Source: Armatimonadota bacterium (lineage in GTDB: Bacteria; Armatimonadota; SYMT01). Taken from it: a stretch of DNA of 64,000 nt. A program made the translations under genes and the position numbers. Where the stretch lies: positions 1-64,000 of the forward strand of contig JBKBRF010000016.1 of the NCBI GenBank assembly GCA_046292385.1. Reading direction: 5' to 3'. Shown here piece by piece: positions 4,635 to 40,957 of the stretch. Each line of letters begins with the position of its first letter. The stretch's first letter is position 1. The notes under the pieces are model-generated. The model worked only from the letters and a program-made list of their open reading frames with translations. It was not told the origin of the DNA and did not search any database.

Positions 4635-6566
4635 ATGCCTCCTCAACCGCCAGAAGCCTCCTCGCACAGCCAGCACTTCATCATCGGCACGGCGGGTCAC
4701 GTCGACCACGGTAAGACCTCGCTGATCCGGGCGCTCACCGGCTCCGAGACCGACCGTCTCCGTGAAGAGCAGGAGCGCGGGATGTCGATCGACCTCGGCT
4801 TCACCGACTTCACCCTCCCGAGCGGCCGCCGCGCCGGCGTGATCGACGTTCCCGGGCACGAGCGATTCCTGAAGAACATGCTCGCCGGGGCCGGCGGGAT
4901 CGACCTGGTGGTGCTGGTGATCGCGGCGGACGAAGGCGTGATGCCGCAGACGCGGGAGCACCTGGAGATCCTGAGCATCCTCCAGACGCGGAAGGGGGTC
5001 GTCGCCATCACCAAGGCCGACATGGTCGACCCGGAGTGGCTGGAGCTGGTCCAGGACGACATCCGCGAGGCGCTGAAGGGCACGTTCCTGGCCCACGCGC
5101 CGATGCTGCCGGTCTCCTCCATCACCGGCGACGGAATCCCGGAGCTGAAGGCGCTGCTCGACCGCCTGGCCGACGAGGTCCCCACGCGGACGATCGTCGG
5201 CCCCTGGCGCCTCCCGATCGACCGCGCCTTCACCATCGGCGGCTTCGGCACGGTGGTCACCGGCACGCTCATCTCCGGGATCGCCCGCGTGGGAGATCGC
5301 GTCGAGATCCTGCCGGAGCGGCTGGAGACCCGCGTGCGCGGCCTGCAGGTCCACGGCGCCTCCGTGGAGTTCGCCGAGGCCGGGACCCGCGTGGCGATGA
5401 ACCTGGCCGGGCTCCAGCTGGAGGAGGTCCACCGGGGGCAGGTCGCCGCTCCGCCCGGGGTCTACGGTCCCACGCTTGCGCTCGACGCCCGCCTCGACGT
5501 GCTGGAGAGCTGCCCCCGCGAGGTGAAGAACCGCACCCGGGTACGCGTCTACCTCGGCACGGCGGAGGTGCTCGCGCGGCTGAACCTGCTCGACGCCGAG
5601 ACGCTGGAGCCGGGCGGTAGCGGCCTGGTGCAGCTGCGTCTGGAAGAGCCGGCGATGGCCTCCAAGGGCGACCGCTACGTGCTCCGGTTCTACTCTCCCA
5701 TGGAGACGATCGGCGGCGGCGCCATCATCGACCCGTCCCCCGCGCGCCACCGCCGCTTCGACGAAGCGGTGCTCTCCAACCTCACCGTGAAGGAGATGGG
5801 GACGCCGGACGAGCTGGTGGCAGAGGCGGTGCAGCGCGCCGGCATCACGCCTGTGGCGCCGCCCGCGCTGGCGGTCTCGCTCGGGATGCCGGTCGAAGAG
5901 GTGCGCCGCATGGTCGCGTCCCTGCTGGAGCGCGGCGAGCTGGAGCAGATGGGTGGGGAGACGGTCCTCCACCGCCACCGCCTGGACGCCGCCCAGCACC
6001 AGATGCTGAGCGTGCTCTCGGAGTTCCACCAGTCCCAGCCGCTCCTGAGCGGCATGAGCCGCGAAGAGCTGCGGAGCCGCATGTCCCGGCAGATGGACGC
6101 CAAGGGCTTCAACCTGATCCTCGGCCGGCTGGAGGCGAGCGGAGAGGTGGTTTCCGAGGGCGGGCGCGTCCGGATCGCCTCGCACGAGCCGCAGTTCACG
6201 CCGGAGCAGCGCCGCGTCGCCGAGGCGCTCGAGGCCGGCCTGCTCCGCGACCCGTTCAACGCCCCCTCGTTCGAAGAGCTGCGCACGAGCGCGTCGCTGC
6301 CGGCACGCGAAGCGCAGGTCGTCTGGGACGCCCTGGTCTCCAACGGCGTCGTCGTGCGGATCGCAGCCGACGTTTTCCTCCACCGCACCGCCGTGGAGCA
6401 GGCGATCGAAAAGGTGCGCACCCACCTCGCCGAGCAGAAGCAGATGACCGCCTCTCAGTTCCGCGACCTCCTCGGCACCACCCGCAAGTACGCCGTCCCC
6501 CTCCTCGAGTACCTCGACGCCCAGCGCGTCACCCGCCGCCTCGGCGACGTGCGAGAGCTGTTCTAA
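4635..6566 (+). CDS. selB: Selenocysteine-specific translation elongation factor SelB
   Basis: [28 protein letters not shown] and C-terminal winged-helix [13 protein letters not shown]. Confidence 0.97.
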
Positions 6567-35829: not shown

Positions 35830-36704
35830 ACGAGCTGCTGATCTTCGCGAACCGCCACGCCGGGGCGCTCTCACGCCTCGGCGGCCCGGCGCCGTTCGAG
35901 CGCTACGCGCGCGCCGCGGGGTTCGAGCCGCGGATCGTGTATACGCGCAACTCCGCCCATCTCCGGCGACTGCTGCGAGAGGAGGTGATTGGAAAGCACT
36001 CGCGGGTGGCGGTGGCCGGGGGCGACGGAACGATGCACTCGGTCGCCCAGGCGCTGGCCGGCACCGAGACCGCGCTCGGGGTGCTGCCCCAGGGCACTGC
36101 CAACAACTTCGCCACGGCGCTGCGGCTGCCGATGGACCTCCCCTCGGCCTTTCGCGTGATCGCGGAGAACCAGGTCCAGCCGGTCGATCTCGGCCAGATC
36201 GGCGACGAGTACTTCATCGAGGCGGCCGGCGTCGGCATCTTCGCGGACATGCTCGCGATCACCGGGGCGAGCCACCGCCTGCGAAACATCGTCCGCGCGA
36301 GCTGGGCCTTTCTCAAGATGATGCTCACCCGCCACAGCCGGCGGGTGCACCTGCTGATCGACGGGGAGCCGTTCGTGGAAGAGGCGTTAAGTGTTACCGT
36401 AGCCAACTCGTTCTGCGTCGGCTACAACCTGCCGATCGCTCCCCACGCGCGCCTCACCGACGGCAAGCTCGACCTGGTGGTGATCGAGGCGCTCGATCGT
36501 CACGAGTGGCTGCCGTACTACCGGGCGATCCGCGCGCAGGTCCACCCGGAGCTGCCGAAGATCCACTACACCCGCGCCCGTGAGGTGCGGATCAACGCCC
36601 GGAGACCGGTACTGGTCCACGTAGACGACCGCGCCTGGCGCCGCACCCCGGTCACGATCCGCGTCGTCCCCAAGGCGCTGAACGTACTCGTGGATCGCCT
36701 TTGA
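35826..36704 (+). CDS. Diacylglycerol kinase family lipid kinase (YegS/BmrU-like)
   Basis: AGGDGT, LPQGTANNFA, DGKLD; ATGA overlap. Confidence 0.9.
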   Translation: MNELLIFANRHAGALSRLGGPAPFERYARAAGFEPRIVYTRNSAHLRRLLREEVIGKHSRVAVAGGDGTMHSVAQALAGTETALGVLPQGTANNFATALRLPMDLPSAFRVIAENQVQPVDLGQIGDEYFIEAAGVGIFADMLAITGASHRLRNIVRASWAFLKMMLTRHSRRVHLLIDGEPFVEEALSVTVANSFCVGYNLPIAPHARLTDGKLDLVVIEALDRHEWLPYYRAIRAQVHPELPKIHYTRAREVRINARRPVLVHVDDRAWRRTPVTIRVVPKALNVLVDRL

Positions 36705-36707
36705 GGG

Positions 36708-36753
36708 TTTTTCGACACAGAGGGACGCAGATTGCACAGAAGAACCCACACAG
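36708..36753. repeat. Left arm of ~46-bp imperfect inverted repeat
   Basis: TTTTCGACACAGAGGGACGCAG..CACAGAAGAACCCACACAG is the reverse complement of 37632-37679. Confidence 0.8.
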
Positions 36754-36830
36754 CGCCGCTGATGCCGCAACCAAACTCACGGCGGCGGGAGAATGCTCGC
36801 TTAGTCGAGACCGTCATCGCTTCGGGAGTC

Positions 36831-37056
36831 CACCCCGCGCCCTCCCCACCCGGAGCGGCCCTGCCGCGTGGGTGGCCCTTCGCGGCCCTTTCACCCTCCG
36901 GCTGCGCCTCCGCTAGCGGGCGCTGCGGGCGTGCCCATCGGTTGGCTCCGCTCCGCGTTCGTGGCCTGCGGCAGTGGCGATGCGGCGACTCACGGGCCGC
37001 TCCGGGCGGCTCAAGCGACCACCCCTACCAGGGGTGGTCACAAGTGAACCCCTCCA
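36831..37056 (-). repeat. ~230-nt structured dispersed repeat, copy B (inverted)
   Basis: Reverse complement begins GGAGG..CTTGTGACCACCCCTGGTAGGGGTGGT and keeps the long-range stem. Confidence 0.8.
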
Positions 37057-37178
37057 GCCCTGCCTCCGGCAGCGCCTCCGGGCTTCGCAGATCCCTACGC
37101 CCGGGGCATCAAGCCGGTCGTGCTTGCACCGGCTTAAGACAACCCGACGGCGGCCAACCGTGCCCAAACCAGAGGCGC

Positions 37179-37406
37179 CCGGAGGGCGCCAGTTGTGACC
37201 ACCCCTGGCAGGGGTGGTAGCTCGAAGGGTCGGGAGGCAGCCCGTGAGCTCCCCTGTCGGCACGGGTAACGCTTCCTGGCGCGGGAAGAGCTTCTCGACG
37301 TGAGCTCCCGCAGCGGCCTGCTAACGGAGCGCAGCGGAGTGTGAAAAGGCCGCGGAGGGCCTTCGTCGCGGGAGGGCTGCCTCCCGGCACAAGGGCTCGG
37401 GGTCGG
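37179..37406 (+). repeat. ~230-nt structured dispersed repeat, copy C
   Basis: Aligns by eye to 274-503 and 63259-63484. Confidence 0.88.
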
Positions 37407-37631
37407 GTTTCGGGATCGAAGCTGCATCTCGCAGAGAAGCAAAACGCCTCGAGACTGGCCCCTCCCGCTTCGCACGGCCCACGCGCGATGACCGCCGGCG
37501 GATCTGCGCATCGCGGCAAGATCCTCGCGGTGAGTAGTACAAAAGAACCGGCACAGACGAGCCCTCGAGAAGGCCGCTCTCCCGGAACCGGTCCACGGTT
37601 CCGCAGGGCCGGCCCAGTCGTGGGTTCTAAT

Positions 37632-37679
37632 CTGTGTCGGTTCTTCTGTGTCCGAGCTGTGTCCCTCTGTGTCGGAAAA
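37632..37679. repeat. Right arm of ~46-bp imperfect inverted repeat
   Basis: Pairs with 36708-36753. Confidence 0.8.
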
Positions 37680-37688
37680 GCAGCGCGC

Positions 37689-38120
37689 CTAGCTTCCGGC
37701 GCTCGCTACGCTGCCCTCGAACTCGGTGTGCTCCGTAATCGCCGCTGCCAGCGCTTCGGGGTTCGTCTTCGCGGGATCGTACACCACCTCTACCGTCTGG
37801 GTGGTGACGTCTGCCTTCATCTTCTGGAATCCATCGACCCTGACCAGGGCCTTCTCCACCTTAGGCGGTCAGCCGGCCGGTCAGGTCATGCCCTTCGCGT
37901 TCAGGACTGCGGACTCCATTCCTTCCGGCACTTCCAGGGTGGTGGTGCTGGCGGTCTGCGTCGTGTTCGGCGTCTCCGAGGTCTCCGGCGTGTTCCCCGC
38001 GGGGGAGTTCGCCGCTGACGACTCGGAGGTCTGCGGCTGCTCGGTGGGAGCGCATCCCACCAGGCCGCCGAAGAGGATCGCCGCCGCGCCGAGTGCCAGC
38101 AGGGTCGAGCTCAATCGCAT
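37689..38120 (-). CDS. Predicted di-selenocysteine HMA (heavy-metal-associated) domain lipoprotein, 143 aa, motif GMT-U-PAG-U
   Basis: Lipobox LVGC; in-frame TGA at 37883-37881 and 37871-37869 at the two Cys positions of the HMA motif; frame continues PPKVEKALVRVDG..VEVVYDPAKTNPEAL..to TAG at 37691-37689; SECIS-like hairpin; selB in the window. Confidence 0.88.
37836..37851 (-). promoter_or_regulatory. Putative bacterial SECIS hairpin
   Basis: mRNA GGCCCU-GGUC-AGGGUC; first loop G at +24 from the second UGA and +36 from the first. Confidence 0.7.
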
Positions 38121-38222
38121 CGTTGCTCCTCTCTGCTTCGCGTCTCGTGTCAAACGAGCTTCCAAGAAGAGTTTACGAGCATTGGCAATTCTTATGACCC
38201 GGGCTGCGGGAGATCGGGAAGC

Positions 38223-38678
38223 TCACTGGTCGGAACGGGCGCCGGCCGGCTTCTCCTGCTCCACGTGCGCGGAGTCTCCGATGTGCTGACCGCCGCTCGG
38301 GTCGAGCTCTCCGGGGCTGCGGGAGATCGAGGCCTTCCGGCTCATCCTGGCGTTCAACGTCTGCAGGAGCAGCTCCGGATTGGTGCGCGCCGGGTCGTAC
38401 ACCACCCGGGCGGTCTCCCGCTCCAGGTCCGCCTTCAGCCCCTTGTAGCCGTCTACCCGCTCCAGGAGCAGCTCCACCCGCTCCGACTCCGCCTTCAGTC
38501 CCGGCACCTTCAACTCCACCACGGAGAGGCCGGGCAGCGTGTTGAGTGCTACGGGACCGGCCGCAGGCTCGGCGGCATTCACGCCCGGTGAGCCCTGAGA
38601 GACGCATCCGCCAAGAGCGGCGGCAGAGAGAACAGCGGCAGAGAGCACGGCAACGGCAAGGGGCTTCCGGAACGACAT
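38223..38678 (-). CDS. HMA-fold lipoprotein lacking the Cys motif (paralog of the selenoprotein)
   Basis: Lipobox LGGC; LKVPGL..RVDGYKGLKADL..VVYDPARTNPELL aligns with the downstream gene. Confidence 0.82.
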   Translation of the reverse strand: MSFRKPLAVAVLSAAVLSAAALGGCVSQGSPGVNAAEPAAGPVALNTLPGLSVVELKVPGLKAESERVELLLERVDGYKGLKADLERETARVVYDPARTNPELLLQTLNARMSRKASISRSPGELDPSGGQHIGDSAHVEQEKPAGARSDQ

Positions 38679-38774: not shown

Positions 38775-40271
38775 CTACCGGGTGACGGCAGGCTCGGGCT
38801 GGAGCTGCTCCTCGTCTGCCGCAGCCTCGGGAGCCGCCGGGAGGCGCACGCGGAAGGTGCTGCCGCGGCCCGCCTCGCTGTCGACCGAGATCTCCCCGTC
38901 GTGCGCTTCCACCGCCCACCGGGTAATGCTGAGCCCCAGGCCCGCGCCGCCCGCGGTGCGCGCGCGGCCCTCGTCCACCCGGTAGAAACGGTCGAAGATG
39001 TGCGGAAGATGCGCTTCGGGGATGCCGATCCCGGTGTCGCGCACTTCCAGGAGCGCGGTTCCGTCCTCTCGGCGCAGGCTTACGGTCACCGTGCCGCCCG
39101 CGGGCGTGTACTTGATGCCGTTGCTCACCAGGTTCACCAGCACCTGGCGGAGCCAGAGCGGGTCGCCGGAGATGGTGACGTCGTCCACCTCCTCGAACTC
39201 CACCATCACCCCCTGCCGGCGCGCCAGCGGCTCCACGTCTTCCACGGTCGCCACCGTGAGTGAGGAGAGCTCCACCGGCTCCCGGCGGATCAGCGCCTGG
39301 CCGGAGTCGGCGCGAGCGAGGAGCAGCAGGCTCTCCACCACCTCCGACATCCGCTCCGCGGAGTCGAGGATCGTCCGCAGGGAGCGCTGGTACTCCTCCG
39401 GCGAGGCAGGACGGCGCAGCGCCACTTCCGCCTCGCCGCGGATCACCGTGAGCGGGGTCTTCAGCTCGTGGGAGGCGTCGGCACTGAACTGACGCACCTG
39501 TTGAAAGCTGCGGTCGAGCCGCGCGATCATCTGGTCGAATGCGCGGGCGAGCCTGCCGATCTCGTCATCCGCGCCCGGGTGCTCGATACGGCGCCGGAGA
39601 TTGCTCCCCTGGATGTCGAGCGCGGTGCGGGTGAGGTCGTCGACCCGCCGGAGCGTGCGCCCGATCACCAGCCAGTTGCCTGCCAGCGCCAGCAGGAAGA
39701 CGAGCGGTGTCAGCAGGATCAGCACCCAGCCGGCCCGCTGGAGCGCCGCCTCCACCCCCTCCAGAGAGGTCCCCGCCTGGACCAGGAACGGGATCCGCTC
39801 GCCCATGCGCACCGGCACGGTCACGATCCGGACCGGGTGCTCGGCCAGGCCCGGGATCGTCTCGATGGTGGTCAGCCCCTGGAGCCCGCGGCGCAGGGCG
39901 TCCGGCGTCACCGGGAGCGGGTGGCTGTTGAGCCCGTCGGAGCGCTCGTAGACGTTTCCCTGCGGATCGACCACCTGCACGTACCGGCCCCACGACCGGA
40001 GCTCGTTGGTGAGGAAGAACGGCTGCCCGGCCTCGGCGGCGCGCGGGGTAAAGGGCCGGCCGGTCATGGCGGCCTGGGTCTCCAGGCGGTAGAGCCGGGT
40101 GGCGATCTGCCGCGCGCTGGCGTCTGCGTGCTCCCGGAGCGCGGCATCGGCGCGGGAGTGGAGCACGCCGATGAGGAGGACGTACGTCAAGCCGGCCAGC
40201 GCCACCAGCGTGAGCGCCATCAGGCCGGCGTGCCACGCGCAGAGCTGCGCGCGGAGCCCTCGCAGCCTCAC
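38775..40271 (-). CDS. Sensor histidine kinase, CusS/CzcS-like
   Basis: Two TM helices, HAMP (DDEIGRLA), FSADASHELKTPL, NLVSNGIKYT, DTGIG, FDRFYR, GAGLGL. Confidence 0.9.
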   Translation of the reverse strand: MRLRGLRAQLCAWHAGLMALTLVALAGLTYVLLIGVLHSRADAALREHADASARQIATRLYRLETQAAMTGRPFTPRAAEAGQPFFLTNELRSWGRYVQVVDPQGNVYERSDGLNSHPLPVTPDALRRGLQGLTTIETIPGLAEHPVRIVTVPVRMGERIPFLVQAGTSLEGVEAALQRAGWVLILLTPLVFLLALAGNWLVIGRTLRRVDDLTRTALDIQGSNLRRRIEHPGADDEIGRLARAFDQMIARLDRSFQQVRQFSADASHELKTPLTVIRGEAEVALRRPASPEEYQRSLRTILDSAERMSEVVESLLLLARADSGQALIRREPVELSSLTVATVEDVEPLARRQGVMVEFEEVDDVTISGDPLWLRQVLVNLVSNGIKYTPAGGTVTVSLRREDGTALLEVRDTGIGIPEAHLPHIFDRFYRVDEGRARTAGGAGLGLSITRWAVEAHDGEISVDSEAGRGSTFRVRLPAAPEAAADEEQLQPEPAVTR

Positions 40272-40957
40272 GCCGGCCCCTCCTTCAGCATGTAGCCGAC
40301 GCCGCGGACCGTCTGCAGCAGCTTGCGGTCCGACTTCGCGTCGACTTTCTTCCGCAGGAAGTTCATGTAAACCTCGAGCACGTTCGACGGGGTCTCGAAG
40401 TCGTACCCCCACACCTGCTCCAGCAGCTCCGCGCGCGTGAGAACCCGCTCGGGGTTGCGCATCAGGTACTCCAGCAGGGTGTACTCCTTGTTCGTCAGCT
40501 CGATCCGCTTTCCGGCGCGGGTGGCGGCGCGCGTGGCCGGGTCGACGGTCAGGTCGGCGTAGGCGAGCGCCGCCATCCGCGCCGCGGTGCTGCGCCGGAG
40601 CAGCGCCCGCAGCCGCGCCTGGAGCTCCTCGAAGGCGAACGGCTTCGGCAGGTAGTCGTCGCAGCCGGCGTCGAGCCCCTCGATCCGGTCGTCCAGCCCG
40701 CCGCGGGCGGTGAGGGCCAGCACCGGCGTGTCCTGCTTGCGCCGCCGCAGCTCCCGCACCACTTCCAGGCCGTTGATGCCCGGAAGCATGATGTCGAGCA
40801 CCACCGCGTCGTAATGACTCGCCGTCAGGTGCTCCAGCGCGTCCTCGCCGGTGTGGACGACGTCGACCTCCAGCGAGTCGGCCTGGAGCCCCCGCTGGAT
40901 CAACGACGCCACGCTCACCTCATCTTCAACTACGAGAATTCGCATCTCTTTTCTCAC
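40268..40957 (-). CDS. OmpR-family response regulator, CusR/CzcR-like
   Basis: ILVVED, LDIMLPG, DDYLPKPFAF, LTNKEY, TVRGVGY. Confidence 0.93.
   Translation of the reverse strand: MRKEMRILVVEDEVSVASLIQRGLQADSLEVDVVHTGEDALEHLTASHYDAVVLDIMLPGINGLEVVRELRRRKQDTPVLALTARGGLDDRIEGLDAGCDDYLPKPFAFEELQARLRALLRRSTAARMAALAYADLTVDPATRAATRAGKRIELTNKEYTLLEYLMRNPERVLTRAELLEQVWGYDFETPSNVLEVYMNFLRKKVDAKSDRKLLQTVRGVGYMLKEGPA

Follow-up and report, generated by a model that had tools for sequence, protein, structure and literature searches.

Does a short gene of an Armatimonadota bacterium end at its first TGA, or is this TGA one of two codons that are read as selenocysteine (Sec) in a longer protein? The question is raised by the minus strand of positions 37689 to 38120 in a window of 64,000 nucleotides (nt) (GenBank assembly GCA_046292385.1, contig JBKBRF010000016.1, positions 1 to 64,000; numbering is that of the window). 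An earlier note, made from the letters of the DNA, had claimed here a lipoprotein with a heavy-metal-associated (HMA) domain, in which both metal-binding Cys residues are replaced by Sec and a hairpin downstream resembles a selenocysteine insertion sequence (SECIS). In this study, we found that both TGA codons are conserved in relatives, that the frame behind them completes an HMA domain, and that the hairpin is kept by compensatory changes. These results suggest that what appears as a short gene is, with high probability, part of a single intact gene that encodes a lipid-anchored metal binder with both Cys replaced by Sec. The overall interpretation of the earlier note was supported by all of its checks that were run; selenium insertion at residues 80 and 84 is among the parts that we infer from the sequence.

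The read-through frame and its conservation

Translation of the minus strand reproduced exactly the frame that had been described, with two TGA codons and a terminal TAG. The coding sequence (38120..37689, minus strand) starts at ATG 38120, which is preceded on its 5' side by GAGGAG, runs in frame through both TGA codons to give 143 amino acids (aa), and stops at TAG 37691-37689. The codons are arranged as ...NAKGMT, TGA 37883-37881 (UGA1), CCG GCC GGC, TGA 37871-37869 (UGA2), PPKVEKALVRVDGF...SAGS, TAG, and the open frame past UGA2 reads PPKVEKALVRVDGFQKMKADV...SAGS. UGA1 (37881..37883) falls on residue 80, the site of the first metal-ligand Cys, and UGA2 (37869..37871) on residue 84, the site of the second, with one extra residue between the ligands. 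The loop motif of the product is GMT-U-PAG-U. A stop at UGA1 would give a stub of 79 aa. The list of open reading frames (ORFs) contains a 94-aa ORF, which begins at TTG 38165 on the 5' side of ATG 38120, and a separate 56-aa ORF from GTG 37859. TGA terminates 307 of the 767 long open frames of this genome, other than here, and is thus an ordinary stop in it. A terminator-like hairpin with a T-rich tail (37685..37702, minus strand) overlaps the TAG and is located there rather than at the first TGA; one such site was found in 3.9 kb where 1.2 were expected, so that its position alone is suggestive.

Relatives were then compared using searches that counted read-through, covering 61 relatives first and, by profile, 401 genomes of the phylum. 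Among the 61 relatives, homologs in four genomes of the same family (G002-G005) had two TGAs at the same positions, and the profile search added G385 and G293. The form GM-x-U-PxG-U was found in 7 of the 401 genomes, the genome of the window (G000) included; an apparent second copy of the G385 gene (L101, G385:C58) was left out of the count. The identity of the whole protein to the homologs of G005, G003, G004, and G002 was 65, 59, 41, and 45%, respectively, and the protein after UGA2 is conserved. Forms with Sec at the first site and Cys at the second were also present: U-PxG-C in G007, G010, G038, G244, G272, and G236, U-PGS-C in G338, and U-xx-C in G016, G369, and one paralog of G385. The G007 gene, from the same order, joins a MerT-like membrane domain to an HMA domain with U-PVG-C. 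The homolog of G001, which belongs to the same family and has the same upstream histidine kinase, reads C-QGS-C. A pattern scan of species genomes found GM[HT]-C-PxG-C at 19 loci outside the phylum, in Flavobacteriia, Planctomycetota, and others. We also observed a gene with two tandem HMA domains (L104, G236:C482), the second of which contains GMH-U-PVG-C, while the first is without a Cys motif in the part seen.

The earlier note had named TAA or TAG at these sites in relatives as evidence that would speak against it. In the genes examined, homologs had TGA or Cys codons at both sites, and neither site was TAA or TAG in any of them. Two subgroups could be followed closely. Group A, the subgroup of the window, comprises 13 genes, 11 with two Sec and 2 with Sec followed by Cys. 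Group B (metagenome loci L120-L188) consists of sister double-Sec HMA lipoproteins with the motif GM-x-U-PxG-U-P-x-RVR-x-AL-x-x-LPWV. UGA1 was TGA in all genes of both groups (13/13 and 14/14), and the UGA2 site of group A was TGA in 11 genes and TGC in 2. The U-PxG-U/C spacing is kept in relatives.

Metagenomes were scanned with a pattern of 17 specified bases across both TGAs. It matched at least 121 stretches, and 80 loci were examined. Of these, 23 matched the family profile at E<=1e-5, and among the matches listed 22 were real HMA genes with both TGAs; the remaining one (L162) was rejected as short and spurious. The other 57 loci were chance matches in other frames, many of them from one repeated gut element. 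A candidate from G299, in which two TGAs stand inside an 817-aa frame, was dropped, its sequence being without a Sec motif.

The TGA codons were also present in independent assemblies. Soil-metagenome contigs from two other studies had exactly the sequence of the window at 37746-38045 and at 37812-38008, stretches that include both TGAs; at these sites, other assemblies had TGA rather than TGC or TGT. A 456-nt RNA-library contig (X17) covers 37652-38102 with 23 differences, none of which is at the TGAs or in the hairpin. Another contig from an RNA run (X12) spans only 37888-38135.

Since gene callers stop at the first TGA and the 56-aa ORF exists, the locus could instead be a decayed or split gene that leaves a 79-aa lipoprotein stub and perhaps a 56-aa product from GTG 37859. 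However, both TGAs and the downstream frame are conserved in 7 genomes and at least 22 metagenome loci. The GTG is not conserved, with Ala or Leu codons at this position in relatives, and a stop at UGA1 would cut the HMA fold of the AlphaFold2 model after its first strand. The hairpin downstream also covaries. We therefore consider decay extremely unlikely. The earlier note had argued against random decay from the fact that two TGAs land on both Cys sites; as both recur in other genomes, the pattern is more than chance. In our judgment, it is highly likely that the read-through gene is real and encodes an HMA lipoprotein with two Sec.

The HMA domain, its predicted export, and its known relatives

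With U read as C, a check that had been proposed along with the original claim, the product passed the Pfam HMA model PF00403 with 42.2 bits against a cut-off of 24.8. The domain occupies residues 69-138 (37707..37916, minus strand) with the order beta-alpha-beta-beta-alpha-beta, as indicated by Pfam, AlphaFold2, and the match to MerP. An AlphaFold2 model built from 8 homologs had a predicted local distance difference test (pLDDT) score of 85-96 for residues 61-140, and residues 1-60 were disordered. Its elements are strand 69-76, helix 84-92, strands 98-104 and 109-114, helix 121-131, and strand 135-138. U80 is placed in the loop that follows strand 1, and U84 is where helix 1 begins. The model has the ferredoxin-like fold of PF00403, in which the ligand loop connects strand 1 to helix 1.

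The top solved match was the oxidised periplasmic MerP of Ralstonia metallidurans (1osd_A), with a template modelling (TM) score of 0.88 on the target, a root-mean-square deviation (rmsd) of 1.3 A, and 33% identity to the product. HMA domains of copper ATPases were next best. Foldseek gave 42 PDB matches at E<=0.001, and the best 50 rows were all copper-, mercury-, or zinc-binding HMA-type domains. In the alignment with solved HMA domains, U80 corresponds to the first Cys of GMTCxxC and U84 to the second via a one-residue gap. The GMxCxxC motif itself is absent from the product, in which both ligands are Sec and are separated by three residues.

A putative signal peptide with the lipobox L-V-G-C (Cys23) was read from the translation at 38052..38120 (minus strand). 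A lipobox follows the pattern [LVI][ASTVI][GAS]C and ends a signal peptide. The N-terminus, MRLSSTLLALGAAAILFGGLVGC, fits this pattern by eye, and a loose lipobox pattern was found upstream in 18 of the 22 metagenome relatives. The lipobox is followed by a tether of about 45 residues rich in Thr, Pro, Ser, and Glu. The protein would be lipidated at Cys23.

Sec-containing HMA proteins are already known, as the earlier note had rightly cautioned, and a double-Sec UxxU family is included among those catalogued. The best NCBIfam match of the window protein was this family, NF041115 ('UxxU_metal_bind', metal-binding (seleno)protein), at 42.1 bits against a cut-off of 95; its best E-value among 8 aligned relatives was 2e-15. 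Both are small HMA-type domains in which Sec occupies the two metal-ligand Cys positions. However, the UxxU spacing of NF041115 is one residue shorter than U-PxG-U, and its model has 74 positions, whereas the window protein adds a putative signal peptide and lipobox and a long tether. NF041115 exceeded its cut-off in none of the 401 phylum genomes, in which the matches below cut-off were ordinary HMA domains. In reviews, the UxxU protein is tabled as 'putative mercuric reductase' with 2 Sec (PMC13188914, PMC9312934), and the Global Ocean Sampling (GOS) survey counts MerP ('Mercuric transport protein MerP'), MerT, and a cation ATPase as selenoproteins of marine origin (PMC2398784). Neither a UxxxU nor a U-PxG-U form was found in the passages searched.

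Similarity to MerP (TIGR02052; PDB 1osd, 1afi) lies in an HMA domain, of predicted export in the window protein, with the metal loop at the same place. The window protein scored 41.7 bits against the MerP cut-off of 92.55, and it differs in being putatively lipid-anchored rather than soluble, in having UxxxU rather than CxxC, and in the adjoining two-component system; no mer genes were found among the window neighbours examined. CopZ/Atx1-type copper chaperones and the N-terminal HMA domains of Cu(I) P-type ATPases (7xuk, 1p6t, 2rml, and others) have the same fold and share the pattern GM[TH]-ligand...ligand-xxx-[VI]-E-x-A-L. These chaperones and domains are cytoplasmic with CxxC, whereas the window protein is predicted to be exported and has Sec with a one-residue insertion. 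The fusion in G007 is similar to NF045683 ('MerT/CopZ fusion-like heavy metal transport selenoprotein') and to MerTP (NF033556). The window protein, which is without a MerT domain, reached 37.2 bits against the NF045683 cut-off of 375. Because it falls short of NF041115 in score and spacing and of MerP in score, it belongs to neither family and represents a subfamily of its own, so far unannotated. Judged by sequence, it is a protein of the HMA superfamily that would work like a Sec version of MerP/CopZ.

The hairpin and the proposed decoding of two UGA codons

Decoding of UGA as Sec depends on dedicated machinery, of which the earlier note had reported selB in the window and proposed that selA, selC, and selD be sought. 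All four were found over their cut-offs in the genome, which is 98.45% complete. The selB gene lies at 4680..6554 (plus strand; TIGR00475, 367.5 bits, cut-off 242.25), and a cluster on contig C11 contains selA (577.9 bits), selD (362.3 bits), and tRNA-Sec (66.6 bits, cut-off 47). The selD gene itself has one in-frame TGA. A rough scan for in-frame TGAs flanked by coding signal on either side also pointed to likely further selenoprotein genes on contigs C2, C5, C6, C14, and C39, each with a hairpin 21-29 nt downstream. Two of these candidates are AhpD/CMD-like with CxxU, three are Prx/TlpA-like with UxxC, of which two stand in tandem on C14, and one is ArsC-like with UxxC.

A different tRNA could in principle read these codons. 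In a SECIS-dependent system of the tRNA(ReC) type, one or both UGAs would be read as Cys and the protein would be partly or wholly a Cys protein. Such tRNAs are reported to be commoner in genomes with UxxU motifs by a study of 2026, which warns of this as a limitation (PMC13582414). ARAGORN predicted a 97-nt tRNA-Cys(GCA) about 5 kb from selC (G000:C11:92717-92813) and an 83-nt tRNA-SeC(UCA) (G000:C77:16947-17029). However, neither prediction matched the Rfam tRNA or tRNA-Sec model at E up to 10, where selC reached 66.6 bits, and the drawn arms of both pair poorly. Only one selB was over the cut-off in the genome. Both odd predictions (C11, C77) are probably false, and we regard decoding by a tRNA of this type as highly improbable. 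ARAGORN also gave two adjacent tRNA-like predictions with the four-base anticodons ctct and cgaa (G000:C5:199142-199303).

The hairpin proposed in the earlier note, GGCCCU-GGUC-AGGGUC (37836..37851, minus strand; H2), has 6 base pairs (bp) and a GGUC loop, and its loop distances were as reported. The first loop G stands 36 nt past the A of UGA1 and 24 nt past the A of UGA2, with 35 and 23 nt, respectively, between UGA and loop. In the bSECISearch consensus, the usable range between UGA and loop is 16-37 nt. All 78 cells of H2 in the 13 group-A genes were paired, and the GGUC loop was invariant. Three of the six pairs were changed on both sides, through synonymous or R/K changes: one from G-C to C-G, one from C-G to U-A via GCC/AGG to GCU/AGA, and a third from C-G to U-A via CUG/AGG to UUG/AAG. 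The covariation score was reached by 0 of 500 shuffles, and the signal was destroyed when the partner was slid by 1-3 columns. RNAalifold also predicts the helix. These results demonstrated that the hairpin is kept by compensatory changes in 3/6 pairs.

Codon choice in the stem is also unusual. The AGG codon at 37841-37839, in the 3' arm of H2, had been called uncommon, and this was borne out: among the Arg codons of the 767 long open frames, AGG accounts for 1.9% and AGA for 0.85% (the genome has 68.9% G+C). A rare AGG, AGA, or AAG codon is used at this place in every group-A gene examined. None of 20 Cys-form genes, many of them from low-G+C genomes, has H2 in its register. In bacterial SECIS loops, a guanine is found at the first or second position (PMC13582414). 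A GGUC loop with a leading G lies downstream of both UGAs, as is expected of the stem-loop of a SelB-dependent selenoprotein, whose apical loop begins with G (usually GU). We compared loop distances with those of other candidate selenoproteins of the same genome, which were picked by motif only (selD, two AhpD-like, three Prx/TlpA-like, and one ArsC-like). Their loops begin 21 to 37 nt from the U of UGA, and one AhpD-like candidate shares the GGUC loop at 29 nt. Measured in the same way, the H2 loop is 27 nt from UGA2 and 39 nt from UGA1. These results suggest that H2 is likely the SelB-binding SECIS.

Whether one signal or two direct the insertion was examined from the RNA between UGA2 and H2. 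A weak hairpin, CCGCC-UAA-GGUGG (37856..37868, minus strand; H1), stands directly after UGA2. Of the 13 group-A genes, 12 had some hairpin of 4-5 bp within nt 13-31, with shifting registers. Its loop in the window would begin about 21 nt from UGA1, like those of the TlpA-like candidates of the same genome. In addition, the sister group B has two strongly covarying hairpins, B1 at nt 21-41 and B2 at nt 44-60 from UGA1, the latter with the loop GUG; 3 of 8 pairs in B1 and 5 of 7 in B2 were changed on both sides, and 91.9% of 210 cells were paired. The RNA layout of group B is unlike that of the window. These findings could mean that H1 directs UGA1 and H2 directs UGA2, each at the usual distance. 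However, the loops of H1 (UAA, GAA, AAG, GAAA, and others) are without a conserved G-U, its register varies by gene, and it may simply follow from the codons CCN-CCN...GUG-G as a by-product of Pro and Val. Moreover, H2 is intact in G007 and G338, the relatives in which UGA1 is the only TGA, and one of the two has a compensatory variant of it; the far distance thus seems workable, and H2 seems to work for UGA1 as well. Two separate signals are thus possible but doubtful in our view. A long-range pairing of UGACCGG with CUGGUCA, which would place UGA1 in a stem, was set aside; it is 96.8% paired, nearly invariant, and without covariation, and as an invariant pairing it is uninformative, neither supported nor excluded.

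We prefer the reading that H2 serves both UGAs, which on the evidence of sequence comparison is less certain than the two-Sec gene itself. There is precedent for raising this idea. For the UxxU Group 4 [NiFeSe] hydrogenases, decoding of both UGAs by one SECIS was raised by the authors (PMC13582414). As described there, these genes likewise have two close UGAs in a metal-ligand motif and one conserved SECIS-like stem-loop downstream; the protein is unrelated and the UGAs are 9 nt apart, versus 12 in the window gene. H1 and B1 may be a signal of their own, a folding and unfolding spacer, or a by-product of codons. As a tentative proposal, of which we are far from confident, one SelB-binding hairpin would serve the two UGAs 12 nt apart with the aid of an intervening 'accordion' hairpin. 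With the ribosome at UGA1, the short hairpin behind UGA2, of 13 nt in the subgroup of the window and 21 nt in the sister subgroup, would be folded and would shorten the path to the GGUC or GUG hairpin. Four codons on, at UGA2, the ribosome would melt it, and the same SECIS would again stand at a workable distance.

Gene neighbourhood and proposed function

Three genes lie upstream on the same strand, in the order response regulator, histidine kinase, and a second lipoprotein. The OmpR-type response regulator (40268..40957, minus strand) had its best match in TIGR01387 with 235.7 bits (cut-off 279.2), and the sensor histidine kinase (38775..40412, minus strand) in TIGR01386 with 266.7 bits (cut-off 292.55); the true start of the kinase is probably downstream of 40412. 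The lipoprotein of 151 aa (38223..38678, minus strand) is an HMA-like paralog, which matched the family profile at 4.1e-14 and Pfam HMA weakly at 14.3 bits. Located between the kinase and the Sec gene, it is without Cys or Sec in its metal loop (...VPGLKAESERVELLL...) and is possibly a partner or decoy. A lipid kinase was also among the window neighbours examined.

Just downstream of the selenoprotein gene, about 970 bp (36708-37679) were without a convincing gene. Inverted repeats of about 45 nt mark the two ends of this region (36708-36753 versus 37632-37679), many more inverted repeats lie inside it, and several soil contigs break off or diverge at 37541-37545. It looks like a non-autonomous mobile or repeated element.

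Several findings weigh against a two-Sec metal binder inserted through H2. The search of a protein collection returned a sole match, the gene's own 79-aa stub, with no homologs. The RNA-library sequences are contigs and hence show presence, not transcription, transcript ends, or expression level. The H2 region had a minimum free energy (MFE) z-score of -0.56, and 57 of 200 shuffles folded as well. The whole window had no Rfam match at gathering thresholds, and no SECIS-type Rfam match was found at E up to 10 in 36500-38300. The distance of 39 nt from UGA1 to the H2 loop is 2 nt beyond the largest among the candidates of the genome. Both the kinase and the regulator are below their family cut-offs, so that the link to metal is by best match only. 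Finally, all 18 solved HMA sequences matched were CxxC and the UxxxU spacing was in none of them; bidentate metal binding is thus assumed.

Because this spacing is unlike every solved HMA metal site found, the U-x3-U loop might chiefly be a diselenide/selenol redox centre in the periplasm, for which the HMA fold was borrowed. The G004 gene would agree with this, as its neighbours on the two sides are a DsbD_N protein and a redoxin/TlpA-like gene that has an in-frame TGA as well. However, such reductant-pathway neighbours could equally keep a metal site reduced. A heavy-metal-type sensor kinase is the partner in the window, in G005, and in the Cys-form G001, and in the latter two it is directly upstream of the orthologs. 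The G293 gene lies beside an ECF sigma/anti-sigma pair, a MerT-HMA fusion, a CMD protein, and ArsR, and the G007 gene beside ArsR and zf_CopZ. The closest families and folds are MerP and CopZ. We consider a chiefly redox role unlikely. These contexts suggest that soft metals are handled in the envelope, possibly alongside a supply of reductant. The arrangement around the G004 gene was seen at about 1766-2068 and upstream of locus L026 (G004:C778), and the TGA of the TlpA-like frame there lies in the motif U-P-S-C.

We propose the following for the metal-binding role. SelB and Sec-tRNA(Sec) would be recruited by the conserved 6-bp GGUC-loop hairpin (37851-37836), and UGA1 would be decoded first, followed by UGA2 four codons later. 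The protein would be exported and lipidated at Cys23, and its tether of about 45 residues, rich in Thr, Pro, and Ser, would hold the HMA domain within the periplasm, where the selenolates of Sec80 and Sec84 in the loop GM-T-U-P-A-G-U-P would bind a soft metal ion. The bound metal is likely Cu(I), Ag(I), or Hg(II), which is less certain than the existence of the two-Sec protein. The protein probably functions together with the neighbouring two-component system of heavy-metal type and with the HMA-like lipoprotein that lacks Cys.

A two-selenolate metal site outside the cytoplasmic membrane is unusual. The family is found in at least 22 metagenome contigs and is invisible in protein databases, as standard annotation cuts its genes at the first TGA. 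A pair of UGAs at a distance of 12 nt, together with covarying hairpins, offers a natural test of an old practical question, the reach and reuse of a single bacterial SECIS. If the spacer hairpin acts as proposed, it would represent a new and general way to place two selenocysteines close together, in a family of diselenolate metal-binding lipoproteins that is widespread and unannotated. A selenolate site could bind soft metals such as Hg, Cu, and Ag more strongly or more rapidly than its thiol counterpart, and this would matter for how metals are resisted and sensed in soils and hot springs.

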